From a virus (Duplodnaviria > Heunggongvirae > Uroviricota > Caudoviricetes): DNA of 20,866 bases. The notes below the pieces were generated by a model. It ran no database searches, was not told the origin of the DNA, and worked only from the letters and a program-made list of their open reading frames with translations. Positions within the stretch are counted from its first letter, which is position 1; the number at the start of each line of letters is the position of its first letter. Of this stretch, positions 1 to 12,164 are shown piece after piece. The translations under genes and the position numbers were made by a program. The stretch lies in IMG/VR virus record IMGVR_UViG_2534682222_000015, positions 1 through 20,866 of that record, one strand, 5' to 3'.

Positions 1-1284
1 TTACTTCTTCGCCTCTGCAACCACTTTACTACCCACGCCGCGGTTATTGTATTCCCACATGCGGTTGTAGTTAGTGTCATTCAGATTGCGCTGTATTTCG
101 TCGTTATCATCTACGCTGCCGGTATTACCCGCAAACGGACGATTAGAGATCACCGCATCGGCCCACGGTTTAGCCGTGTTAAAACCTTCGTTGATGGCGC
201 TATCACGGATCACCACCTGACCGTTGGTATTGGCATCAACATCCAGCGAGCGGCCCAGTTGCGCCACACCATCACCGAAAGCATTGAAACGGCTGTTTAC
301 GGCGAGGAAACCGTAGTAAATGTTGGACAGCGTAGCCGGTGCAAACACATACGCTTCTTGCTGAGTACGTGAGTTCACCACGCGGAATTCGGTGTTATCG
401 AACACCACTGCGCCGCGACCAGAAACGATATCCACATCCCCTTCAATGTAGCTGTTGGTCACCAGCGTACGCGGCTGACGATTCGTTTCCAGACGGTTCT
501 GCACACCGCTGTTGGTGACAAAGAAGGTGTTCTGACGACCGAGAATGTTAACGTTGTTAATCTGTACCTGGTCACCATCAGTACGCAGTGCCACCGCCGG
601 ATGGTTACCTGCATCTACGCTATCGCCCAGCGTGTTTTCGATGGTCAGATTTTGCAGTTGCAGGCCATTGTTTTGTGACCAGAAGACCGCAGAGCAGAGA
701 ACACCGATACTGTCGCTGCGTTTGCTCTGGCAGCTATCGTACATATACCACGCTGGTTTACCTGGCATATATTTGCCGCGCGGGTTGACGTCGTGACGCC
801 AGTCGGCAGGGCTCATGCCACCATCAAGGGAAAGCCCAATCTTCACATCAATCGGTTTTTCACCTGTACCGTACAGAGTAATTCCACCCGGAGCGGCAGG
901 GACATATACCGTTCCCTGATACTCACCAGGCATCACGGCAATATACTGGCGCTTGTTGGTACGCTTGATAATTGCCGCATCTACCGCCGCCTGAATCGTG
1001 GTATGCGTTACACCTTGAGTGCCCGCCGGGCCGACAACAAAGTCAGGTTGCGCAGGCAGGGTAATCGGGGAAGGATTCCACGCTGCAGCACCTGGTGTCA
1101 GGGATGCAAAATAGTGTTGAGCATCGAAATTCTGCGCTTCTTTTGCCGACAGAATCGGGCGAGAAGAGGTACCAGGCGCGGTTTGATCAGAAGGACGTTG
1201 ATCGGGCGGGGTTGAGCTACAGGCGGTCAGCGTCACGCCAAAAGCCAATGCCAGCGCCAGACGGGAAACTGAAAATGTGTTCAC
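1..1284 (-). CDS. ybhC: Host outer-membrane lipoprotein YbhC (pectinesterase-like acyl-CoA thioesterase), complete, GTG start
   Basis: 427-aa ORF with lipoprotein signal (…LTACSS); recognised from memory as E. coli YbhC, the gene flanking attB-lambda on the gal side; position immediately outside attL core. Confidence 0.85.
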   Translation of the reverse strand: MNTFSVSRLALALAFGVTLTACSSTPPDQRPSDQTAPGTSSRPILSAKEAQNFDAQHYFASLTPGAAAWNPSPITLPAQPDFVVGPAGTQGVTHTTIQAAVDAAIIKRTNKRQYIAVMPGEYQGTVYVPAAPGGITLYGTGEKPIDVKIGLSLDGGMSPADWRHDVNPRGKYMPGKPAWYMYDSCQSKRSDSIGVLCSAVFWSQNNGLQLQNLTIENTLGDSVDAGNHPAVALRTDGDQVQINNVNILGRQNTFFVTNSGVQNRLETNRQPRTLVTNSYIEGDVDIVSGRGAVVFDNTEFRVVNSRTQQEAYVFAPATLSNIYYGFLAVNSRFNAFGDGVAQLGRSLDVDANTNGQVVIRDSAINEGFNTAKPWADAVISNRPFAGNTGSVDDNDEIQRNLNDTNYNRMWEYNNRGVGSKVVAEAKK

Positions 1285-1418: not shown

Positions 1419-2489
1419 TTATTTGATTTCAATTTTGTCCCACTCCCTGCCTCTGTCATCACGATACTGTGATGCCATGGTGTCCGACTTATGCCCGAGA
1501 AGATGTTGAGCAAACTTATCGCTTATCTGCTTCTCATAGAGTCTTGCAGACAAACTGCGCAACTCGTGAAAGGTAGGCGGATCCCCTTCGAAGGAAAGAC
1601 CTGATGCTTTTCGTGCGCGCATAAAATACCTTGATACTGTGCCGGATGAAAGCGGTTCACGACGAGTAGATGCAATTATGGTTTCTCCGCCAAGAATCTC
1701 TTTGCATTTATCAAGTGTTTCCTTCATTGATATCCCGAGAGCATCAACATGCAATGCTGTTGGGATGGCAATTTTTACGCCTGTTTTGCTTTGCTCGACA
1801 TAAAGATATCCATCTACGATATCAGACCACTTCATTTCGCATAAATCACCAACTCGTTGCCCGGTAACAACAGCCAGTTCCATTGCAAGTCTGAGCCAAC
1901 ATGGTGATGATTCTGCTGCTTGATAAATTTTCAGGTATTCGTCAGCTGTAAGTCTTGATCTCCTTACCTCTGATTTTGCTGCGCGAGTGGCAGCGACCGG
2001 GTTTGTTGTTATATGGCCTTCAGCTATTGCCTCTCGGAATGCATCGCTCAGTGTTGATCTGATTAACTTGGCTGACGCCGCCTTGCCATCGTCTATGTAT
2101 CCATTGAGCATTGCCGCAATTTCTTTTGTGGTGATGTTTTCAAGTGGAGCATCAGGCAGACCCCTCCTTATTGCTTTAATTTTGCTCATGTAATTTATGA
2201 GTGTCTTCTGCTTGATTCCTCTGCTGGCGAGGATTTTTTCGTAGCGATCAAGCCATGAATGTAACGTAACAGAATTATCACTGTTGATTCTTGCTGTCAG
2301 AGGCTTGTGTTTGGGTCCTGAGAATAACTCAATGTTGGCCTGTATAGCTTCAGTGATTGCTATCCTTCTGTCTCTGCCTAATCCGAACTCTTTACCCGTC
2401 CTTGGGTCCCTGTAGCAGTAATATCCATTGTTTCTTATATAAAGGTTAGGGGGTAAATCCCGGCGCTCATGACTTCGCCTTCTTCCCAT
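1419..2489 (-). CDS. int: Tyrosine integrase, lambda Int type (356 aa)
   Basis: 356-aa ORF starting MGRRRSHERRDLPPNLYIRNNGYYCYRDPRTGKEF…, essentially the lambda Int sequence as I recall it; adjacent to attL. Confidence 0.95.
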   Translation of the reverse strand: MGRRRSHERRDLPPNLYIRNNGYYCYRDPRTGKEFGLGRDRRIAITEAIQANIELFSGPKHKPLTARINSDNSVTLHSWLDRYEKILASRGIKQKTLINYMSKIKAIRRGLPDAPLENITTKEIAAMLNGYIDDGKAASAKLIRSTLSDAFREAIAEGHITTNPVAATRAAKSEVRRSRLTADEYLKIYQAAESSPCWLRLAMELAVVTGQRVGDLCEMKWSDIVDGYLYVEQSKTGVKIAIPTALHVDALGISMKETLDKCKEILGGETIIASTRREPLSSGTVSRYFMRARKASGLSFEGDPPTFHELRSLSARLYEKQISDKFAQHLLGHKSDTMASQYRDDRGREWDKIEIK

Positions 2490-2685
2490 TTCTGATCCTC
2501 TTCAAAAGGCTACCTGTTATTGGTCGATTTAAGTCAACCTTTACCGCTGATTCGTGGAACAGATACTCTCTTCCATCCTTAACCGGAGGAGGGAATATCC
2601 TGCACTCGCGTACCCATCGACGAACTGTTTCAAGGCTTCTTGGGCGTCGCTGGCGTGCGTTCCACTCCTGAAGTGTCAAGTACAT
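2467..2685 (-). CDS. xis: Excisionase, lambda Xis type (72 aa)
   Basis: MYLTLQEWNARQRRPRSLETVRRWVRECRIFPPP… matches lambda Xis from memory; overlaps int start as in lambda. Confidence 0.95.
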   Translation of the reverse strand: MYLTLQEWNARQRRPRSLETVRRWVRECRIFPPPVKDGREYLFHESAVKVDLNRPITGSLLKRIRNGKKAKS

Positions 2686-2711
2686 CGCAAAGTCTCCGCA
2701 ATTACACGCAA
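2686..2711 (-). promoter_or_regulatory. PI promoter region with CII recognition repeat TTGC-N6-TTGC (minus-strand TTGCGTGTAATTGC) just upstream of xis ATG
   Basis: Minus-strand sequence CTTGCGTGTAATTGCGGAGACTTTGCGATG; TTGC-N6-TTGC is the established lambda CII site; arrangement as in lambda PI. Confidence 0.6.
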
Positions 2712-2712
2712 G

Positions 2713-2734
2713 AAAAAACCGCCATCAGGCGGTT
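2713..2734 (-). terminator. Intrinsic terminator hairpin (AACCGCC-loop-GGCGGTT) followed by U-run on minus strand, at the 3' end of the 55-aa gene
   Basis: Inverted repeat aaccgcc/ggcggtt with A6 on plus strand (U-run on minus-strand transcript). Confidence 0.55.
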
Positions 2735-2892
2735 TTGTGTTCTTTCAGTTCTTCAATTCGAATATTGGTTACGTCTGCATGTGCTATCTGCGCCCATATC
2801 ATCAAGTGGTCATAGCAGTCGTTGAAGTCCTCTGCTTCGATAACCCTGTTGAATGGTTCTCCATTCCATTCACCTGTGACTCGAAAGTGCAT
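2725..2892 (-). CDS. Hypothetical small protein (55 aa; MHFRVTGEWNGEPFNRV…), not in supplied ORF track
   Basis: ATG with GGAGATGA RBS 6 nt upstream, ORF ends in terminator loop; found by manual translation of minus strand. Confidence 0.45.
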   Translation of the reverse strand: MHFRVTGEWNGEPFNRVIEAEDFNDCYDHLMIWAQIAHADVTNIRIEELKEHKTA

Positions 2893-2992
2893 TTATCATC
2901 TCCATAAAGCAAAACTCGCCGTAGCGAGTTCAGATAAAAGAAATCCCCGCGAGTGCGAGGATTGTTATTCACCTTTGACGGCAAGTTGCAGG

Positions 2993-3391
2993 TTAGCCAT
3001 GGTTAACCTCCTGCTCAATATTTTTAAGGTCATTTTCCGCATACAGTATTGCAGTCCTTGCTGCTCGCAACCGTGCTTTGGTGTTCTTTTCTTCGCGCTC
3101 AAGGTTGGCTACAGACTCGCGCAACTCATCACGGCGACGATGGAGTTGCTCAATCTCAGTGACGATATGCTCACCATCAGTAGCTACCTGCAGGATGTGC
3201 TCGAAGGGGTCAATAACGCAGCCGCACTTTGTGCAACGAACAACGCGATCAGTTTCACAAACCTCGATAGCCCGATGCTTACAGCTATGTTGTATGTAGT
3301 TTTTTCTGTCAGTTACAGTGATGTTCAGCAGTTTCTCTTCATTGCGCTTTGGCTGCACCAGAGAGATGACGTTGTCGCTTTCATTTTCCAT
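2993..3391 (-). CDS. Hypothetical protein with Cys-rich zinc-ribbon-like segment (C…C…CxxCxC) and C-terminal coiled-coil
   Basis: 132-aa ORF, GGAGG RBS, start overlaps stop of upstream gene (translational coupling). Confidence 0.6.
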   Translation of the reverse strand: MENESDNVISLVQPKRNEEKLLNITVTDRKNYIQHSCKHRAIEVCETDRVVRCTKCGCVIDPFEHILQVATDGEHIVTEIEQLHRRRDELRESVANLEREEKNTKARLRAARTAILYAENDLKNIEQEVNHG

Positions 3392-4179
3392 TACTTCGCC
3401 TCCAGCGGAGGTTCTGGTAGCGGCATCCAGTGAGTTGCTTGCTCAATACCATTACCCGGCTTAATCGTTGCATCTCCGCGCCGAAAGGTGCTTCCGGTAT
3501 AGCGTGCGGAGCATATTAGCGGTTCAACCAGAGAGCTATCGAAATTCACCGAAATAAGCACGTTCTGGCCCTTTTCAGGCATTCGCTCACTACAGCTTAT
3601 CCAACTATCCGAAATTACCGGAGAGTTGCCAGGCTTCACATATCCACTGTGTGCGTCGGCATCGTATTCAAGAATGTCCGGCTCCTCTGACAATTCACCA
3701 ATCAAATGGCGCATGCGGTCAGATTTGTAGCGAACGCGGTCAGGATGCTCGGAACGCTCGATTGTGATGCCTTCCCATGGGTGCTGGCCTTTTCGATGCA
3801 GCATTGCGGTCCAGTTTGTTTTGCCGTTCGTTTCAGGCATTGATCCGTACCAGACTGTTAGTTCTGGCTTGCCATCGGCACCCTGAAGCATGGCGGCGCG
3901 GCAGGCTTCAAATACCGCATTGTTAAACCTCACACCTTCAAAAAAGATTTTCCCATTATGCTCAAACCAGAACTCGGACTTCTCAACATCGGGTAAGAGG
4001 CTTTTAAGCACGCCCTCAGACACTGATAACACCGCTGGCTGCGGTAACTGTGGTGCTGTGCTAGTGAGCATGGACATCAACGCGCAGATGGTGTCCTCGC
4101 TGATTTCAAACATACCACTGGCGTTCTGCGTCGAGGCTTTCAGGTCTTCGATAATGCTCTGTTTCGTAAATTCAGCCAT
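3391..4179 (-). CDS. Hypothetical phage protein (262 aa), Trp-rich C-terminal region
   Basis: Long ORF in operon orientation, tightly packed with neighbours; no confident family assignment. Confidence 0.6.
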   Translation of the reverse strand: MAEFTKQSIIEDLKASTQNASGMFEISEDTICALMSMLTSTAPQLPQPAVLSVSEGVLKSLLPDVEKSEFWFEHNGKIFFEGVRFNNAVFEACRAAMLQGADGKPELTVWYGSMPETNGKTNWTAMLHRKGQHPWEGITIERSEHPDRVRYKSDRMRHLIGELSEEPDILEYDADAHSGYVKPGNSPVISDSWISCSERMPEKGQNVLISVNFDSSLVEPLICSARYTGSTFRRGDATIKPGNGIEQATHWMPLPEPPLEAK

Positions 4180-4182
4180 ACC

Positions 4183-4587
4183 CTACCCCCCCACCTTAGT
4201 GATGATACCATCGGCGATTTTTTTCGGGCTATATGCTGCTATGCATTGCTCATATCTAGCCTGGTCGTTTGTCTGTCCGTAGCTAAAACCATGCTGAAGG
4301 CCATGGCGAAACGCGCTATCCTGCAATTTGTCAGTGGCTTGGAGTTTCGCCTCCAGCTCAGCGTTGCGCCTGTCTTTGGATTCCAGCTCATCCAGCAGCG
4401 CCAGCACGGTAGTGGGGTTTGCTGCGGAGTTCAGCGCGTTCAAGGCAGTGATATCTGCATCAAGCTGAGTTCCTTCTGCCAGTGAGATATCGAAAATGTC
4501 ATCAGGCGGCATAACACTAAGGCGCTCATGTGCGCCAACTGCTGCCGCTGCGATTTCACGCAGCGCCTGTTTGTCGATGTTGCTCAT
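4183..4587 (-). CDS. Hypothetical phage protein (134 aa from MSNIDKQ…; ORF track shows longer 152-aa frame)
   Basis: AGGAGG RBS 7 nt upstream of internal ATG at 4587; ATGA overlap with stop of upstream gene. Confidence 0.55.
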   Translation of the reverse strand: MSNIDKQALREIAAAAVGAHERLSVMPPDDIFDISLAEGTQLDADITALNALNSAANPTTVLALLDELESKDRRNAELEAKLQATDKLQDSAFRHGLQHGFSYGQTNDQARYEQCIAAYSPKKIADGIITKVGG

Positions 4588-5240
4588 TGGGCTGCCTCCT
4601 GGCGAAGTTGGGCGGCGCGAATTGCTTTCCACTGCGACCACATTCCGTTGTAATCAGTACCGGAAAGAGTTGAGTTGCGGTAGCCGTCATCAGTGCGCAA
4701 ACCTTCTAGCGTGGTCTTAGAGATGAATATCTTCTCCATTACCCATTCTTCGAATAAATCACGCTCCGTCGCTTCATCTGGAATAGCACTTGCCCGTACT
4801 TCAGCCAGGAAAGCGTCGGTGGCCGGGGTGTTGATTTCTGGCTTGGCATATACCGGCCAGCAATCAGTACCGTCGGAATTCTTGTGGCCAGCATCATCGT
4901 GAACATCAAGATACTCACCGCACGGGAGAGGGTCTTCCCATGTTGGCGGGATAGTGTGCCAGGATAGATAGGCTTGAGGCTTGTCAAACGCAGCCTTCAG
5001 CCCAGCATTCTCCGCCGCCAGCACTGAAAACTTCTCGTGTGCCAACTTAACAGCCGAATCAGCCTGCTTAATTGACTCAATCGCTTTCTGGTGGTCTTCG
5101 GACAGAGCCGAAATCTTAGCCTCCGCTTCAGCAAATTTACGCACCAGATATTCAGCGTTTGTTTCGTTAACCTTTAAATCTCGTGGGATGCATTTACCTT
5201 TCAGAAATCCATCCATCTCAATTAGTGACATTTGTTTCAT
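4584..5240 (-). CDS. Hypothetical phage protein (about 218 aa; start chosen at MKQMS… by ATGA coupling with upstream stop)
   Basis: ORF 4584..5258 in track; upstream gene stop overlaps ATG at 5240. Confidence 0.55.
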
Positions 5241-5419
5241 TTCTTCCCACTCCGCCATATCGCATTCAGATATTTGTTTTGATTTACTGATGGAAAAGAA
5301 TTTCTCTTAAGCAATTCCTCTCTCGATGGCATTGGCTTTACGCGTTGGCGAATAATCATTTCTGCCGGAAGAATGCCGGGATTGTATGCAAGTCCTCTCA
5401 TGGTAAATTCCTCAGTCAT
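5237..5419 (-). CDS. Hypothetical small protein (60 aa; [15 protein letters not shown]…)
   Basis: Internal start of track ORF 5237..5554 overlapping the stop of the 98-aa upstream gene; remainder of the longer frame overlaps that gene. Confidence 0.4.
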
Positions 5420-5708
5420 TACTGATAGCGCCATAGCGTGAGCGGTAATTACGCAGGCGCGGGTCGATATATTCAGGGAAGTGGGTATATGTGGCTTTGC
5501 GGAATGGTCGGATTGATGTCTGGTAAATTCGCTCTCGTTCTTCTTTCTCTGCAAGCCATATACAGTGGCGAAATTCCTTTTCCTCTTTCGTTTCCTGCGG
5601 TAGAGACATTATCCGGTCGTAGTTTTTCCTGAATTTATCCAGCACCTCCGATACGGAATTGCCGGAACAGCGGCGCGCGTCGTCCGCACCATACAGAGGC
5701 GCTGGCAT
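5412..5708 (-). CDS. Hypothetical protein (98 aa)
   Basis: AAGGA RBS upstream of ATG at 5708; operon context. Confidence 0.5.
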
Positions 5709-5731
5709 AATGGAATCCTTATGTTGCTACT

Positions 5732-6115
5732 TTAGAAGGGAATTGAATCGTCGTATTCAGGATGATTTTGATGATTGCTACTTTGCTGCTGTTGGCTGTT
5801 TCCTGAGGTTGCAAATCCAATCTTTGCATTCAGTAATTCAAGAGTGATTGATTGACCATTTTGCCCCTGATAAACATCAACCCTGATGTTTTCTCCGGTA
5901 ATTTCCACAATGCCACCTTCAACAAGAACGCTACGGTAGTAATCCGCTTGCGCTCCCGGCTTGGCAAATACAACGGCGCTGTAGTTTGTCCATTCTTTCT
6001 TTTTTGTCTGGCGATCGTAATACTGAACGCCAGCACGGATGTTGAATCCGATATTTTCCCCGGCCTGAAACTCTCTTGCGGGCTTGTTTAGTCTTACAGT
6101 AATCGAATGTGCCAT
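5732..6115 (-). CDS. ssb: Single-stranded DNA-binding protein (phage SSB; acidic C-terminal tip …EYDDSIPF)
   Basis: 127-aa ORF ending in the DD(S/D)IPF tail characteristic of bacterial/phage SSB; directly downstream of erf. Confidence 0.7.
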   Translation of the reverse strand: MAHSITVRLNKPAREFQAGENIGFNIRAGVQYYDRQTKKKEWTNYSAVVFAKPGAQADYYRSVLVEGGIVEITGENIRVDVYQGQNGQSITLELLNAKIGFATSGNSQQQQSSNHQNHPEYDDSIPF

Positions 6116-6720
6116 TAAGCAGCCGCTCCTTCTAATTCATCTCGTCTGATGTTGTAAACGTCCTGCGCTTTGTGCTGCTCCGGTGTGCCTTCGAGCATCT
6201 TCCACGCTTTGGCGAACGCCTGTTTAAGCTCTTCTACGGTGTTTTTCTGCATTGCTGCGTCAGTGAATGCTTTTAGAACCTGTTCAGGTGTAGGTGATGG
6301 TTTTGATTGCTTTGCTGCTGCGTTCTGCTGATGTTTATGCTCGTCTGTATCTGCATCTTTCGCATCATCAATGCCGAACAAACCATTGAGGCAATACTTG
6401 CGCGCATAAGAACTTGTAGCTCCAGTAACTTGTGCAGAATCCATTCCTTTCTTGCTTTCTTCCTCTCGTGCAAGAGCGGTTGCCGTATGACTGTTTTCGC
6501 CATCGGTAATAGTTGCCGTAGCTTTCACGTAATACCGATCACCAATCAACACAACTTCATCGCTGATTGATAAAAACAGGCCATTCAGTAACGGCTTAAC
6601 GCCTTCAAGAATGTCTTCGCAGCTTCTGTATTTATATTTGCCGAATGAGTTGTACTGATTCTTTGGCGCGTTCAGATTCTCCTGAATAGCTGCCAGTCTT
6701 GCGTAAAATTCTTTGCTCAT
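6115..6720 (-). CDS. erf: Erf-family single-strand annealing recombinase (P22 Erf-like); start at MSKEFYARL…
   Basis: Sequence MSKEFYARLAAIQENLNAPKNQYNSFGKYKYRSCEDILEGVKPLL… closely resembles P22 Erf as I recall it; track ORF extends 10 codons upstream to a TTG. Confidence 0.8.
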   Translation of the reverse strand: MSKEFYARLAAIQENLNAPKNQYNSFGKYKYRSCEDILEGVKPLLNGLFLSISDEVVLIGDRYYVKATATITDGENSHTATALAREEESKKGMDSAQVTGATSSYARKYCLNGLFGIDDAKDADTDEHKHQQNAAAKQSKPSPTPEQVLKAFTDAAMQKNTVEELKQAFAKAWKMLEGTPEQHKAQDVYNIRRDELEGAAA

Positions 6721-6821
6721 ATGATTGTTCTCAGAATGGACACGGCCCAAGGAAATAACGCTGATTTAATACTTCGACTCGGGACAAATTAAGGCATACC
6801 CGCATTCCTTCGCGGTCGCCA

Positions 6822-6980
6822 TTATGGCGATACCAGAGAGCTTTCTGCGTGTACATGCGTCTCTGTAACTTGCTCTCCTTCACTGTGGTTGCAAGTGACA
6901 TGAATATCTCCTTCGTTACCGATTAATTCTTTCATCTGACGAATGAATTCTTCGTCTGACCAGTTATCTGTAAAACTCAT
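6822..6980 (-). CDS. Hypothetical small protein (52 aa; MSFTDNWSDEEFIRQM…), possibly Arf-like accessory recombination gene
   Basis: Manual translation; ATGA overlap with kil stop; position between kil and erf as P22 arf. Not in ORF track (<60 aa). Confidence 0.35.
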   Translation of the reverse strand: MSFTDNWSDEEFIRQMKELIGNEGDIHVTCNHSEGEQVTETHVHAESSLVSP

Positions 6981-7129
6981 TTCCTGCGATACCACGGAAG
7001 GTTGATAGCTGATTTCATCGCTTTATTTGCTTCAAGCCACATTTTTGAATCACCAATAAATCTGGCTATTACTGCTTTGTTCTGTGCAGCACGAAGCATC
7101 TGGTGATTGATGGCTATTTCATTGCGCAT
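6977..7129 (-). CDS. kil: Kil-like host-killing (FtsZ-inhibiting) small protein (50 aa)
   Basis: Manual translation MRNEIAINHQMLRAAQNKAVIARFIGDSKMWLEANKAM…; FIGDxKM motif and position immediately downstream of cIII as in lambda. Not in ORF track. Confidence 0.5.
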   Translation of the reverse strand: MRNEIAINHQMLRAAQNKAVIARFIGDSKMWLEANKAMKSAINLPWYRRK

Positions 7130-7245
7130 AATAAGACCTCAACTCTTTTCCATCCGTCACGTAATTTACGGGTGATTCGTTCAAGTAAAGATTCATTTAA
7201 TTGGAAGGCACCCATGCGAGCGCCTCCCGCGATTGCGTAAATCAT
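7114..7245 (-). CDS. cIII: CIII (FtsH/HflB inhibitor) homologue (43 aa)
   Basis: Manual translation MIYAIAGGARMGAFQLNESLLERITRKLRDGWKRVEVLL…; the ESLLERITRKLRDGWKR core matches lambda CIII from memory; AAGGA RBS. Confidence 0.7.
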   Translation of the reverse strand: MIYAIAGGARMGAFQLNESLLERITRKLRDGWKRVEVLLCAMK

Positions 7246-7269
7246 GGGTGGTTCCTTATGTTGGTTTTA

Positions 7270-8238
7270 TTAGTAGGTTATTTTTGTTGCGAATACTTCG
7301 CCTTTTACGATGGCTGTTATGATATTTTTAGCAACATCTTCTGATGCGCCAACCTTGATAAGGTCAGCAAGTATTTTGTTATTTACTTCTTTCCGGTGAG
7401 CTTTATCCTTTGCTCTACACTCTTCCTCTTCCTTGATTCTTTTTTCTTCTGCTATTCTGGCTTGCTCTTTTGCTTCAGCCTCGCGCCGGATTCGTTCAGC
7501 CTCCTCCTGTGCTTTTCGGCGTTCTGCTTCAATTGCCGCCTGCTTTTCTCTTTCAGCTCGTTCTGCTGCCTCTTTTGCTTCGCGCTGTGCTCGTTGCTCG
7601 GCTTCAATGCGTTCACGCTCTGCACGTTCCGCTGCGGCCTTAGCTTCTGCTTCTCGCCTTGCTGCTGCTTCAATTTCGGCTTTTGCCTTTGCTTCGGCTT
7701 CTGCTCTGGCTTTCTCTTCAGCTTCTCTTTTTAAGCGTTCTTCATGCTCTCGCTTTTCCTGCTCCGCTTTGAGTCTTGCCTCTTCTCTTTGGCGGTCAAA
7801 TTCGCGATCCATCAAAATAGCTATTTCATGGTCAGACTCAATTTGCTTTGCGAGAGCTTCAGCTGCTGCCTTAGCTTCTTCTTCGGCTTTAATCCGTGCC
7901 TGTTCCTCCTCATAATCAGTAAGAGGCTGGCGTGCCTTGGATTTCAGCTCATCAAGGCGATCACGCACTGTCTTGCGGTTGGCATCAATTAGCTTTGGAA
8001 TTTCCTTCAGTTCAGCAACAAGGTCTTTTCCAAGACCATCGAGATATGTTTTCGTCTGCGCAACTTTATACGCCAGAGAAGCGATCTCCTTTCTGCCCTT
8101 TGCCGTTGTGATATCAGGCACAAAGGACATAACTTCACGTTCAACCCTTTGAAGGATTTCTTCAATCTGGTCGGCAGACTGAAATACAGTCATTGCATTT
8201 GCTTTTTCAATAACAACTAAATCTGTTACTTCACTCAT
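7270..8238 (-). CDS. Hypothetical protein with long E/R/K/A-rich predicted single alpha-helix / coiled-coil core (322 aa)
   Basis: GGAGGA RBS; central about 140 residues are almost exclusively E, A, K, R, Q; globular N- and C-terminal ends. Confidence 0.65.
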   Translation of the reverse strand: MSEVTDLVVIEKANAMTVFQSADQIEEILQRVEREVMSFVPDITTAKGRKEIASLAYKVAQTKTYLDGLGKDLVAELKEIPKLIDANRKTVRDRLDELKSKARQPLTDYEEEQARIKAEEEAKAAAEALAKQIESDHEIAILMDREFDRQREEARLKAEQEKREHEERLKREAEEKARAEAEAKAKAEIEAAARREAEAKAAAERAERERIEAEQRAQREAKEAAERAEREKQAAIEAERRKAQEEAERIRREAEAKEQARIAEEKRIKEEEECRAKDKAHRKEVNNKILADLIKVGASEDVAKNIITAIVKGEVFATKITY

Positions 8239-8896: not shown

Positions 8897-8924
8897 GCCA
8901 AAAATAAAGGCCGACTATGCGGCC
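8897..8924 (-). terminator. Intrinsic terminator-like hairpin (GGCCG-loop-CGGCC + U-run) overlapping the stop of the 207-aa gene
   Basis: Inverted repeat 8909-8924 with A-run 8901-8908 on plus strand. Confidence 0.4.
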
Positions 8925-9538
8925 TCGGAAGGAAGTCCAATCATCTTATTCAAATCTTCTACCCGTAAAGCAGGAAGTGCTGTACTTGCTTTATCTGCTT
9001 CTTTTGGTAGCAACTCTTTGCTTTCAGGCCAAACTTCAATAAGTCGCTTAACTGTTGTGACTGAGTTCAAAGCAGCCCATACATTTGATTCGATATCCTT
9101 TTTCTTGGCTTCAAGTTTTTGTTGCAATGCGCAGATTTCATCAAACCTTTTTGTTATTTCGTGTTCTGCGCTAAACATGCATTTATCTTCGTTCGGAGCA
9201 GGGAGCAATATATCTTCGCCGTTGCCGTCTTTCCCATATGAAAGCCATCCAACCCTTCTGCCAGATACAGTCAGATAAATTGAAGTAGAACGAACATCGT
9301 ATGAGTAAAATGAACATCCCATCTTTCCAAGTTCTTCACTTATAGCTACCAACTTGGATGATAACTGATCCACTTCCTCAGTTTTCTTTTTACCGCCAAA
9401 CGCAATAACTCTGGCGTCAAGTGCAAGCTGGTTCTTTAACTTTGTTACTTCTTCAAGTTCAGTGAAAACCCCAGACTTAATTAAAGCGTTACGAGCGATT
9501 ATCTCTTTCATTCTCGTAGTTAAGCGGATTGATGACAT
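8915..9538 (-). CDS. Hypothetical protein (207 aa from MSSIRLTTRMKEII…), translationally coupled to N; occupies the sieB-like slot
   Basis: GAGAGGA RBS; only 11 nt after N stop; AT-rich; track ORF extends 20 codons further upstream into N. Confidence 0.6.
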   Translation of the reverse strand: MSSIRLTTRMKEIIARNALIKSGVFTELEEVTKLKNQLALDARVIAFGGKKKTEEVDQLSSKLVAISEELGKMGCSFYSYDVRSTSIYLTVSGRRVGWLSYGKDGNGEDILLPAPNEDKCMFSAEHEITKRFDEICALQQKLEAKKKDIESNVWAALNSVTTVKRLIEVWPESKELLPKEADKASTALPALRVEDLNKMIGLPSEAA

Positions 9539-9876: not shown

Positions 9877-10048
9877 CTTGATTCTCCTGTCAGTTAGCTT
9901 TGGTGGTGTGGTAGGTGGGAGACCCATTTCGACCTGCTTCGGCCGACTTCAATTCGGCAATAGTTCCGCAGGCCTCGCCGCTTTACGTGCGACATATTCC
10001 CATCCATGAACCCTTCACCACACCCCAAAGCCTTCTGCTTTGAATGCT

Positions 10049-10078
10049 GCGCTTTTTCAGCGCCAGATTTTTAAGAGC
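10049..10078 (-). promoter_or_regulatory. nutL: nutL: boxB hairpin (minus-strand GCGCTGAAAAAGCGC, 10049-10063) and boxA-like GCTCTTAAA (about 10070-10078)
   Basis: Read directly; boxB differs from lambda nutL boxB (GCCCTGAAGAAGGGC) at the stem but keeps the GAAAAA loop. Confidence 0.65.
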
Positions 10079-10118
10079 TTCACCGTCCTGGTGAGTAGTG
10101 CGTCCTGCTGATGGAGCA

Positions 10119-10187
10119 ATATTCACGTATTGTGATTTAAATGTCAATCACGATATGTGTATAATTTATTTATCACACGATATGTGT
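10119..10187 (-). promoter_or_regulatory. PL promoter (-35 TTGACA at 10143-10148, -10 GAATAT at 10119-10124, minus strand) with three OL operator sites of form TCAC-N5-GTG(A/T) at 10123-10135, 10148-10160, 10175-10187
   Basis: Three similar 13-bp dyads spaced about 25 bp apart; same dyad family recurs in OR. Confidence 0.6.
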
Positions 10188-10258
10188 ATGTTTTTAGTGG
10201 GGTAAATAATTTCAAAAAAACGTGATATGCTCAGAAAAACATCAAAGAGGGCATTGTT

Positions 10259-10483
10259 ATGGGGCTGGGAATGGATATGGGTAGGGATGAACTGCTGGAA
10301 GACCGCGCAGCTTTCATCGCTGGCGAGATTGGCGGCGCGGTTGTTGAGTTGATTATCGGAGGGGTGGTGATTAATAGGGATGCGATTGTGGATAGCTTGG
10401 AGACCAAGAGGAGGGCGGTGGGTAATGTTATTCACAAGGGATTGCTGAGGGATGCTGCGGAGTTCGTGAGGAAAGGACAGTAA
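10259..10483 (+). CDS. Questionable small ORF (74 aa) in G-rich, C-poor spacer between OL and the rex-slot gene terminator
   Basis: AAAGAGGG RBS-like sequence 7 nt upstream of ATG; strongly skewed composition; may be non-coding. Confidence 0.2.
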   Translation: MGLGMDMGRDELLEDRAAFIAGEIGGAVVELIIGGVVINRDAIVDSLETKRRAVGNVIHKGLLRDAAEFVRKGQ

Positions 10484-10504
10484 AAACCCGGCGCGATGGC
10501 CGGG
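10482..10504 (-). terminator. Intrinsic terminator of the cI / rex-slot operon (CCCGGC-loop-GCCGGG + U5 on minus strand)
   Basis: Hairpin 10487-10504 immediately after the stop at 10511-10513, A-run 10482-10486 on plus strand. Confidence 0.6.
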
Positions 10505-10510
10505 TCACTA

Positions 10511-11353
10511 TTAAGGCTTCTTCTTATCGTGCTTTACTAGTGCTTTGTGTGTTTTCTTGATACTGCTTCTAACTTTTTGAATTTTATCTTGAGACAACTT
10601 AATACTCTCAGGTGCCGTTCCTGTGTTGGCAATCATTACATTTCTAACAGATCTTCCAACTGTTTCAGCGGCATTTTCAAGTTGCACCTGCCCCTTAAGA
10701 TTCTGGTTTCTTATTCTTGCTTCTGTTTGTGTTATTCGGAAAATGTTAGCAGCAAGTTCTTCGCTGCCCATAAAATCAAGCATTGTTCCATCTTTTTTAG
10801 TTAGTCCTTTGCGGGCTTTCAATTGCGTGAGATTCATGTTGTACATCCCGCGATATCCTGCATTTTGAAAAAGACCATAGTCTACTACGCCATGCTTATG
10901 TGCCACGTGGCTAAGAGTCTTTTCTCTTGAAGTGATTTCACCACGCAAATAAACTCGGTTAACTGCATCATGGTTATGATACGCCGCTTGAATTTCTGCT
11001 GCCAGACCAGCAAAGTATGCCTGAGCATTTGCAACTTTCTGATTGCTAATATCGCCATTCATTACAGTTAAATAGCAAGCAAATCGAGTTAATTTAAAGT
11101 CATTTTGCGCATTCTCAGAAGGCATCTGAATGAAGTTGTCGTAGACGGGGATATCAAGGTTAACGCATACAGACGTTGCCTTGTTGATGGCTTTTAGTAT
11201 CTGGTCCATACCATTATACCCAAGCATCATCGCCAGATCAGATGCGAACCAATAGGTAACACCATTCTCCCTGGCGAAATCATCAAATGTTAACTGTGAT
11301 GCGTCATCGAAAACGGTAATTTGCCTACTCATATCACACCCAAACTTACTCAT
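10511..11353 (-). CDS. Bro-N/KilA-N-like N-terminal domain protein, possibly DinD/RhuM-family (280 aa), in the position lambda uses for rexAB
   Basis: N-terminal motif …TYWFASDLAMMLGY… typical of Bro-N type domains; C-terminal segments (RFACYLTVMNGD, FQNAGYRGMY, MLDFMGSEELAANIFRITQTE) resemble, from memory only, E. coli DinD-like proteins; AAGGGA RBS. Confidence 0.7.
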   Translation of the reverse strand: MSKFGCDMSRQITVFDDASQLTFDDFARENGVTYWFASDLAMMLGYNGMDQILKAINKATSVCVNLDIPVYDNFIQMPSENAQNDFKLTRFACYLTVMNGDISNQKVANAQAYFAGLAAEIQAAYHNHDAVNRVYLRGEITSREKTLSHVAHKHGVVDYGLFQNAGYRGMYNMNLTQLKARKGLTKKDGTMLDFMGSEELAANIFRITQTEARIRNQNLKGQVQLENAAETVGRSVRNVMIANTGTAPESIKLSQDKIQKVRSSIKKTHKALVKHDKKKP

Positions 11354-11512: not shown

Positions 11513-11541
11513 CTTATCACCCAAACGTCTCTTCAGGCCAC
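11513..11541. repeat. Direct repeat copy 2, spanning the cI stop codon and last 7 codons
   Basis: See copy 1. Confidence 0.7.
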
Positions 11542-12164
11542 TGTGACGCAACAACCTTACCAACAACCCGACAGTGCTCATTACACGGCATCATGGGGAA
11601 TTGAGGATTCAATGGCTGGAGAAATATCTGCCCGCTGTCCTTGATCAGTTTCTTAAACGTGAATTCATCGCCACCTAATCTGGCGATACAGAAATCACCA
11701 GGGTCAACCGGTTCATCTGGATCTACAAGAATTAGCATTCCTTCAGGGAAGCTAGGCTTTGAACCAGCAGGAGCCGTCATGGAATGGCCTTCAACCTCAA
11801 GCCAGAATGCATTGTCGCTGGCTTTCTTTGTCGTGCTTACCCATCTCTCTGCATCACGTTCGGTGAATGTGCGAAATTCAGGTGAGAACATACCAGCTTG
11901 TACATGCGAGAAAACCGGGTACTCAAATTTCTGGAATACTGGCCCATTGTCTTCGCCAAAAAGAATAAGCGAAGGAGACACCTTAAGAACCTCAGCAAGC
12001 GTTAACGCATCATCAGCGCTAACTTTTCGCGTGCCAAGCTCATAATTCCCCAGTCGTGAAGGCGCAGCCCAGCCGCAAAGGTTGGCTAACTTTGCTTGGC
12101 TGAGTCCTTTAGCTTCGCGAAGGGACTTTATCCTCTCGCCGATAATTTCATGCATAGTTTTCAT
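11517..12164 (-). CDS. cI: CI-type prophage repressor (N-terminal HTH, C-terminal LexA/S24-like autocleavage domain with GHSM Ser and FKK Lys); non-lambda immunity
   Basis: 215 aa; C-terminal domain resembles P22 C2 (GDSMTAPAG…PEGM.ILVDP…ATFKKL…PLNPQ.P); located divergent from cro across operators. Confidence 0.85.

Follow-up and report, generated by a model that had tools for sequence, protein, structure and literature searches.

The window analysed here is a 20,866-nucleotide stretch of viral DNA (IMG/VR record IMGVR_UViG_2534682222_000015, positions 1 to 20,866) that carries, between xis and its recombination genes, a block of seven small genes at 2725–5708. We found that this block is probably the accessory 'ea' region of a lambdoid prophage, that is, an array of cassettes within the leftward early operon. 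The region has already been catalogued, and the block is a new mosaic combination of known cassette families. A first-pass annotation had described seven uncharacterised genes that often, in such positions, encode host-takeover or anti-defence functions. The description does not hold, as one of the seven matches Abc2, for which cryo-electron microscopy structures and biochemistry are available, relatives of the Ead/Ea22 and EaE/Oad2 proteins have phenotypes, and the 55-residue open reading frame (ORF) matches lambda orf55. The functional expectation fits Abc2 and, by homology to Oad2, the 218-residue protein; the remaining five proteins are members of conserved phage families whose functions have been tested little or not at all. 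These 'seven unknown genes' are best regarded as the familiar P22-type ea region, and we see no case for treating them further as a new system.

The seven ORFs are all on the minus strand and have the coordinates first proposed for them. Because every one matches a PHROG family, in full or for much of its length, and because the source assembly (GCA_000264115.1, contig AJWQ01000172.1, Escherichia coli 541-15) has its own calls of 98, 54, 218, 134, 262, 132 and 55 amino acids in the block, we take these ORFs to be real, conserved genes and not chance ORFs. Among the seven, only the abc2 family has a named function in PHROGs. Pfam assignments were obtained for four of the proteins (Anti-RecBCD_p2, DUF2737, Ead_Ea22 and DUF551), three of which belong to ORFs that had been said to have no assignable features. 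NCBIfam gave no match for the seven block proteins, and no Rfam RNA family was found anywhere in the window. The block and its flanking signals, assigned by homology and prediction, are as follows.

5412–5708, minus strand: abc2, anti-RecBCD protein 2, 98 amino acids (PF11043, PHROG 656, P22 Abc2)
5237–5401, minus strand: DUF2737 small protein, 54 amino acids, P22 orf56 homologue (PF10930, PHROG 1117)
4584–5240, minus strand: EaE/Oad2-family protein, 218 amino acids (PHROG 614, HF4s EaE, HK446 gp27)
4183–4587, minus strand: Ead/Ea22-like protein, 134 amino acids (PF13935, lambda Ea22 N-terminus, P22 EaD tail)
3391–4179, minus strand: EaA-like three-module protein, 262 amino acids (N, residues 1–100; M, about 100–180; DUF551, 192–258)
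2993–3391, minus strand: predicted zinc-ribbon and long-helix protein, 132 amino acids (PHROG 1621 at 1e-52)
2893–2992, minus strand: 100-nucleotide spacer with two terminator-like hairpins (2942–2963 and 2912–2931)
2725–2892, minus strand: orf55, orthologue of lambda lambdap35, 55 amino acids (PHROG 676 at 3e-37)
2715–2736, strand unassigned: GC-rich hairpin of nine base pairs, flanked by U/A tracts, that overlaps the stop codon of orf55

Following the direction of transcription, 10 nucleotides separate abc2 from the DUF2737 gene, the DUF2737 and 218-residue genes overlap by four nucleotides (ATGA), as do the 218- and 134-residue genes (ATGA), three nucleotides separate the 134- and 262-residue genes, the 262- and 132-residue genes overlap by one (TAATG), and 100 nucleotides lie between the 132-residue gene and orf55. 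The genes had been described as tightly packed with overlapping start and stop codons. The packing is real at five of the six junctions, where the gap is 10 nucleotides or less, but orf55 is uncoupled behind its spacer; overlapping codons are present at three junctions and absent from the other three. A purine-rich, Shine-Dalgarno-like motif precedes each start codon of the block, and the short ATGA and TAATG overlaps would couple most neighbours translationally.

An array of exchangeable cassettes

In a megablast search, parts of the block were matched in 579 phage records and, among 5426 complete E. coli genomes, in 3379. No phage record and none of the 5426 genomes carried at least 80% of the block in one record: the best phage record covered 36% and the best genome, that of strain ABWA45, 57%. 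In relatives, other cassettes are interleaved, encoding ASCH, HNH, DUF4752 and dATP/dGTP pyrophosphohydrolase proteins. Because no record holds at least 80% of the block and its genes and domains recombine independently, we conclude that the block is an array of independently exchangeable cassettes and not one machine. Such mosaicism is the standard behaviour of lambdoid accessory regions.

The tight coupling of the genes had been taken as a hint of one functional unit, and it could be argued that the seven genes encode the subunits of a single multi-protein system expressed from a single functional operon. The three stop/start overlaps and five short gaps are what such a system would display, and the linkage of DUF551 to the 132-residue gene (described below) is consistent. 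However, the low coverage in any one record and the foreign cassettes interleaved in relatives argue against it, as do the shuffling of domains inside single genes and the occurrence of family members in the rightward nin-like region of other prophages. At most, the DUF551/132-residue pair behaves as a unit. We therefore regard a seven-subunit system as very improbable.

Gene order and homology place the block in synteny with the ea region of P22 (abc2-orf56-eaE-orf45-eaF-eaD-eaI-eaA-eaG-eaC-xis) and make it the counterpart of the lambda exo-xis region. As in P22, it has the erf/abc recombination genes on one side and xis on the other, is read from the same strand, and has homologous genes in the same order. 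It differs from P22 in that eaF, orf45, eaI, eaG and eaC are absent, and in that the relatives of EaE, EaD and EaA share part of their length at 37–57% identity. Conversely, P22 lacks the 132-residue gene and orf55, and the int-xis end of the window is of the lambda type.

The first-pass annotation had likened the block to the dispensable ea/b-region genes of lambda. The comparison with a dispensable, accessory, early-left region stands, but it is the exo-xis region (ea22, ea8.5, orf55) that corresponds to the block; the b region, located beyond att, does not. Like the block, the lambda exo-xis region (orf60a, orf63, orf61, ea22, ea8.5, orf55) is a non-essential part of the pL operon next to xis (PMC10695390). 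The two share orf55 (91% identity), the spacer hairpins and the orf55/xis terminator (~93% DNA identity), and the Ea22-type N-terminus and coiled coil found in the 134-residue protein. In contrast, BLAST found no homologues of lambda orf60a, orf61, orf63 or ea8.5 in the block, and the recombination module is Erf/SSB/Abc2 in the window but Exo/Bet/Gam in lambda. The 132-residue gene occupies the position of ea8.5, without sequence similarity and with a different predicted architecture.

The lambda-like end of the block is sharply bounded. The 55-residue ORF can be identified as lambda orf55 from its 91% identity to NP_597778 over 55/55 residues and its same place next to xis. Homology to lambda DNA, at about 93%, begins at ~2967, takes in both spacer hairpins, orf55 and the terminator, and reaches the first part of xis, the limit of the comparison; ~2967 is a sharp mosaic junction, and no lambda homology was found upstream of it. 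The spacer RNA has a fold energy of -32.8 kcal/mol. The hairpin at 2715–2736 (-16.5 kcal/mol) differs from that of lambda at one stem position and resembles an intrinsic terminator of the bidirectional kind, placed between orf55 and xis.

We propose that the block forms the distal part of a leftward early operon that runs N ... erf, ssb-like, abc2, block, xis, int. The block genes are all co-directional, N, cIII, kil and erf lie upstream on the same strand, and the single promoter-like site found in 2300–7300, against 6.2 expected, lies outside the block. By analogy with lambda and P22, the block genes would be silent in the lysogen. They would be switched on within minutes of infection or induction, as soon as N allows transcription past the internal hairpins. 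The lambda exo-xis genes were found to be non-essential by CRISPR interference mapping, with orf55 itself outside that test (PMC10695390), and because of this we infer that the block is dispensable too.

Abc2 and the EaE/Oad2-family protein

The 98-residue ORF matches Pfam PF11043 at 4e-61 (203.6 bits against a cut-off of 25) over model positions 1–97 of 97, belongs to PHROG 656 ('abc2 anti-RecBCD'), is 92% identical to P22 Abc2 and matches the Abc2 chain of PDB 8B1T/8B1U with E=2e-55. Pro68, the residue that occupies the PpiB site, is kept, and an Erf-type recombinase gene lies nearby (6115–6720) with an SSB-like gene between. By homology, then, this ORF is Abc2, a member of the Erf/SSB/Abc2 recombination module, so that the seven genes do not all lie outside that module as had been supposed. 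P22 Abc2, seen by cryo-electron microscopy with Pro68 in the PpiB active site, binds RecC and changes the response of RecBCD to Chi, and its proposed role is to hijack RecBCD in the service of Erf-dependent recombination and not just to block it (PMC9836394). The window protein shares with this P22 system (8B1T/8B1U) a full-length match, Pro68 and the neighbouring erf and SSB-like genes; it differs at about 8% of its residues and by a one-residue insertion near the C-terminus. We propose that it would likewise bind RecC, so that RecBCD, instead of degrading phage DNA, would assist Erf recombination. A role of this kind in anti-defence or host takeover, through RecBCD hijacking, is established for Abc2, and it extends to the window protein by analogy.

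Next to abc2 lies a small DUF2737 gene whose product is 77% identical to P22 orf56 (PHROG 1117) and matches Pfam PF10930 at 5e-32 (109.9 bits) over positions 1–53 of 53. This ORF had been given as 60 amino acids, with a start at 5419. Because the DUF2737 model begins at the second ATG, at 5401, because a GAGGA motif precedes this ATG, and because P22 orf56 and the HK446 and HK75 homologues share the 54-residue type of length, the protein probably has 54 residues. The annotation of phage HF4s uses the 60-residue form. A literature search on DUF2737 found no paper.

The 218-residue protein is of particular interest because its family includes a direct inhibitor of a defence nuclease. It matches PHROG 614 at 6e-50, is 56% identical to HF4s EaE, matches P22 EaE in part, and aligns with HK446 gp27 (Oad2) at 43% identity over 157 residues (E=8e-34). 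In an alignment of six family sequences, invariant coiled-coil residues, an invariant 13-residue motif and a common QLR tail were separated by unrelated segments. The window protein has the same layout, with a conserved N-terminus, the coiled coil, variable inserts, the 13-residue motif and a QLRxx tail. Its first ~45 residues closely resemble those of Oad2, with few substitutions. The gene also stands at the oad2 position, directly after the DUF2737 gene with an ATGA overlap and downstream of abc2. Judged by these sequence features, membership of the EaE/Oad2 family over the full length is established. The differences from Oad2 are in length (175 amino acids in Oad2, 218 here) and in two stretches, one from the coiled coil to the motif and one that follows the motif, which are unrelated.

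Work on P2 OLD, an abortive-infection tRNase, has reported that HK446 gp27 (Oad2), described as related to P22 EaE, binds the OLD tetramer directly, relieves OLD toxicity in recB-deficient cells and cancels the defence that OLD provides, and that in some phages the Oad2 family is fused to HNH or EaD/Ea22 modules (preprint 10.64898/2026.07.10.737580). That preprint was the only publication found by a literature search on EaA, EaD and EaE. We could confirm that HK446 gp27 is Oad2 because the stated 54% identity to HK75 gp28 was reproduced here. The family thus supports an anti-defence role for the 218-residue protein, by analogy. The inserts of the window protein fall in the same segments in which active Oad2 and its inactive HK75 homologue differ, and the variable segments are likely to be the specificity determinants of the family. 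We propose that, by way of these divergent inserts, the 218-residue protein may neutralise a defence protein of the OLD type or one related to it.

Ead/Ea22-like, DUF551 and zinc-ribbon proteins

The 134-residue protein matches Pfam PF13935 at 1.7e-20 over residues 2–106 and combines an Ea22-type N-terminus (lambda counterpart MSEINSQALREAAEQA) with a coiled coil. Its match to lambda Ea22 is weak (23% identity) and covers the first ~100 residues of lambda Ea22 only. As the alignment stops at about residue 100 of lambda Ea22, the dimeric C-terminal domain of the lambda type was not found in this protein, whose C-terminal tail is instead 57% identical to the C-terminus of P22 EaD. The Ea22 proteins of lambda and of Shiga toxin (Stx) phages are tetrameric and pro-lysogenic, acting through a partner (PMC7093339, PMC10834534). 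By analogy, the 134-residue protein might bias the lysis-lysogeny decision.

The 262-residue protein is a composite of three modules. Its C-terminal end matches Pfam PF04448 (DUF551) over residues 192–258 (1e-21, 77.8 bits) and is 37% identical to the DUF551 end of P22 EaA. BLAST aligns residues 184–259 only; no similarity to EaA was found by BLAST outside DUF551, the N and M modules belonging to other shuffling groups. Coverage maps of the BLAST matches resolve independent modules N (1–100), M (about 90–194) and DUF551 (185–262), each with different partner proteins. Over 6000 database proteins share parts of the sequence, and one, from E. coli 541-15, is identical to it. AlphaFold gave a mean predicted local distance difference test score (pLDDT) of 62, with M and DUF551 at about 80 and the N module, below 50, unreliable. 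The matches of a Foldseek search against BFVD were for the most part DUF551 and uncharacterised proteins, and none of the annotations pointed to a function. DUF551 is also present in the V2 variant of Stx-phage Ea22 and in YfdS, which has been linked to oxidative-stress tolerance (PMC10834534).

The M domain deserves separate mention. Pfam has no model for it, and a whole-library search with residues 95–185 found 916 representative clusters, 773 of them at E<=1e-10. The carriers range from about 90 to 500 amino acids, at 63–100% identity and with the domain in varying positions. DUF551 occurred in only 15 of 133 sampled carriers, and a few carriers had Lar, Ead_Ea22, MazZ-like dNTP pyrophosphohydrolase or ASCH-type domains. 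The predicted fold bears a weak resemblance to AP2, the AP2/ERF-like DNA-binding fold being a three-stranded sheet on a helix.

For the 132-residue protein, the earlier suggestion that its Cys cluster forms a zinc ribbon followed by a coiled coil was borne out as a prediction. Residues C37, H39, C53 and C56 (C-x-H...C-x2-C) do not vary among 29 sequences, and the C-terminal helix (LEREEKNAKARLR...AENDLKN) hardly varies. The AlphaFold model (mean pLDDT 80) has a disordered N-terminus, then hairpins at 42–45 and 50–53 that carry the putative metal ligands and form a small ribbon, and a single 70-residue helix at 62–131. A Foldseek search of the model against PDB found nothing at E<=0.001; the best match was the TFIIB zinc ribbon (E=0.41). 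Homologues number 127, are about 131 amino acids long, are annotated as hypothetical and, among matches with a named source, come from Enterobacteriaceae only. An analogy to lambda Ea8.5, a homeodomain/zinc-finger hybrid, was considered and rejected, as there is no BLAST match and the model is a ribbon with a single helix, not a homeodomain.

The gene for this protein has a preferred neighbour; in the window, the gene and the adjoining DUF551 end span 2993–3625. In all 37 sampled full-length E. coli matches (37/37), the upstream gene that overlaps its start was annotated DUF551 or ead/Ea22-like, regardless of which other domains the upstream protein carries; the Ea22 type is represented by the 933W Ea22-like protein, which ends in DUF551. 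In Salmonella and Klebsiella prophages, the 132-residue gene lies in the rightward nin-like region, where it follows a DUF551 gene at 4/6 loci and often precedes hok/sok or dinI. Because this linkage is seen at 37/37 E. coli loci and 4/6 Salmonella/Klebsiella loci, we conclude that the DUF551 end and the 132-residue gene tend to travel together. This is the sole hint of a multi-gene unit in the block, and we propose that the DUF551 protein and the zinc-ribbon/coiled-coil protein may act as a pair. Members of the family with 76% identity are found in Stx phages, among them 933W and VT2-Sakai. In 933W, where the homologue (NP_049537) is located at L0139/L0140, its start likewise overlaps the end of a DUF551-terminating protein (NP_049538), and the two DUF551 ends are 47% identical. 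However, 933W carries the Ead/Ea22 N-terminus and DUF551 in one protein, where the window has two adjacent genes of 134 and 262 residues, and downstream of the 933W pair comes hok/sok in place of orf55 and xis.

In the same Salmonella and Klebsiella prophages, ea-type cassettes (Ead_Ea22, DUF551, the 131-residue gene and DUF4752) lie between the replication genes and Q/RusA, beside hok/sok or dinI. The presence of such cassettes in the nin-like region suggests that one cassette pool serves both lambdoid accessory regions.

How might the cassettes act? In our model, each would probably encode a small stoichiometric binder of a host protein. Our best guess is that the DUF2737, orf55, DUF551 and zinc-ribbon proteins all bind host factors in this way; the DUF2737 protein and orf55 would be small modulators. 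We also put forward, tentatively and as a less than likely extension, that the 218-residue protein is a new specificity variant of EaE/Oad2 whose unique inserts are directed against other defence systems of the OLD-family/ABC-ATPase/TOPRIM kind (the Gabija, PARIS, Septu and Lamassu class), and that the DUF551/M-domain protein with its obligate zinc-ribbon partner is an unrecognised counter-defence module. If so, domain shuffling would have turned the abc2-xis region of lambdoid prophages into an anti-defence island of a combinatorial kind.

Several points weigh against our main reading of the block. The HK75 homologue of Oad2, at 54% identity, did not inhibit OLD (preprint 10.64898/2026.07.10.737580), so activity cannot be transferred to a homologue at 43%. 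PADLOC gave no credible match for the seven proteins, the only hits being two weak, coiled-coil-type matches of the 132-residue protein to LmuB (E~1e-3). Besides Abc2, no block protein has a sequence match to a solved structure; a PDB search with the 218-, 134-, 262- and 132-residue proteins returned nothing but chance-level matches (aldehyde decarbonylase, a de novo TIM barrel and Rcf1). At two of the six non-E. coli loci, both from Salmonella (L009 and L010), the 132-residue gene has no adjacent DUF551 gene. Transcription of the block from pL with N-dependent readthrough is what we infer from synteny. Finally, the published phenotypes of lambda Ea22 and the exo-xis region concern the lysis-lysogeny balance and not defence (PMC7093339, PMC10834534).

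This last point leads to another view, in which the block consists mainly of lysis-lysogeny modulators like those of lambda and Phi24B exo-xis: Ea22-like proteins would tip the decision towards lysogeny, and induction and host physiology would be adjusted by the small ORFs, with no part in countering host defence. Deletion and over-expression of Ea22 have phenotypes in lambda and Stx phages (PMC7093339, PMC3824215), the 134-residue protein has the Ead_Ea22 signature, DUF551 occurs in the Stx Ea22 V2 variant and in the stress-linked YfdS (PMC10834534), and the 933W Ea22 shares its DUF551 end with the 262-residue protein. However, the 134-residue protein lacks the lambda C-terminal domain, the block has no homologue of lambda orf60a, orf61, orf63 or ea8.5, and Abc2 and Oad2 provide counter-defence functions in the same neighbourhood. 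We consider this view possible although on balance unlikely; modulation and anti-defence are not mutually exclusive.

It could also be proposed that some or all of the genes are host-beneficial morons that protect the lysogen through defence or superinfection exclusion. Prophage accessory regions often hold defence genes, and elsewhere in this prophage (10511–11353) there is a strong match to the PADLOC defence candidate PDC-S13 (6e-85). The block itself argues otherwise: apart from the weak LmuB hits its proteins have no PADLOC counterpart, it contains no promoter-like site, its genes lie inside a repressed pL operon between erf and xis, and the characterised relatives, Abc2 and Oad2, serve the phage against its host. 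Protection of the lysogen by these genes therefore seems highly unlikely.

Taken as an ea region, the block represents a mosaic reservoir of small early proteins, in which one family, EaE/Oad2, has newly been shown to contain a protein that directly inhibits a defence nuclease. Found in the window are a divergent member of this family, a well-defined two-gene DUF551/zinc-ribbon linkage, a highly conserved 80-residue M domain with more than 900 representative clusters and no Pfam model, and, within the same operon, a homologue of the reported OLD trigger Gp33. These would be cheap targets for defence-panel screens.

The surrounding prophage

The other genes of the window to which we refer are listed here.

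1–1284, minus strand: ybhC, at the start of the window
1419–2489, minus strand: integrase, lambda-type
2467–2685, minus strand: excisionase (xis), lambda-type
5732–6115, minus strand: SSB-like gene, between erf and abc2
6115–6720, minus strand: erf
6822–6980, minus strand: Gp33 homologue, 52 amino acids, just after kil
7270–8238, minus strand: charged coiled-coil protein, 322 amino acids, without Pfam or PADLOC match
8915–9538, minus strand: Nmad5 protein, 207 amino acids (PF18757, 1e-70, full-length domain)
10511–11353, minus strand: Bro-N protein, 280 amino acids, directly downstream of the cI-like repressor gene (11517–12164)

The prophage is integrated next to ybhC. From the sequence relationships of its parts, it is a hybrid in which an early-left arm of the HK022/HK97/P22 type is joined to a lambda-type int-xis-orf55 end. 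Beyond the block, the same strand carries the SSB-like gene, erf, the gp33-like gene, kil, cIII, the genes for the 322-residue protein, a 156-residue ORF and the Nmad5 protein, and N.

The ORF at 6822–6980 is 88% identical to HK446 Gp33, which has been reported to be a trigger of the P2 OLD abortive-infection nuclease and a putative manipulator of RecBCD (preprint 10.64898/2026.07.10.737580). With a homologue of the OLD trigger in the same operon, a nearby cognate inhibitor would make biological sense. An overlapping ORF at 6731–6901 was considered as the Gp33 homologue and rejected, as it has no similarity to Gp33; the ORF at 6822–6980 is the true homologue.

The SSB-like protein (127 amino acids) is 99% identical to HK446 gp31 and ends in an acidic DDSIPF tail, as in bacterial SSB; it matches a phage SSB PHROG only, with no Pfam match. 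The 322-residue protein contains a long helical repeat region that is extremely rich in E, K, R and A. In phage HF4s its apparent counterpart, by position only, is annotated as 'similar to phi80 Agt, Gam antitoxin'. The gene for the Nmad5 protein ('nucleotide modification associated domain 5') stands immediately after N.

The PDC-S13 match mentioned above is that of the 280-residue Bro-N protein, whose gene is at the position of lambda rexAB. Judging from this match and location, the prophage may encode here a defence gene that is active in the lysogen. Between N and the Bro-N gene, in an apparently non-coding stretch where pL and nutL would be expected, the GC skew rises to a spike of +0.27 at 10001–10500, against about -0.1 on the flanks.

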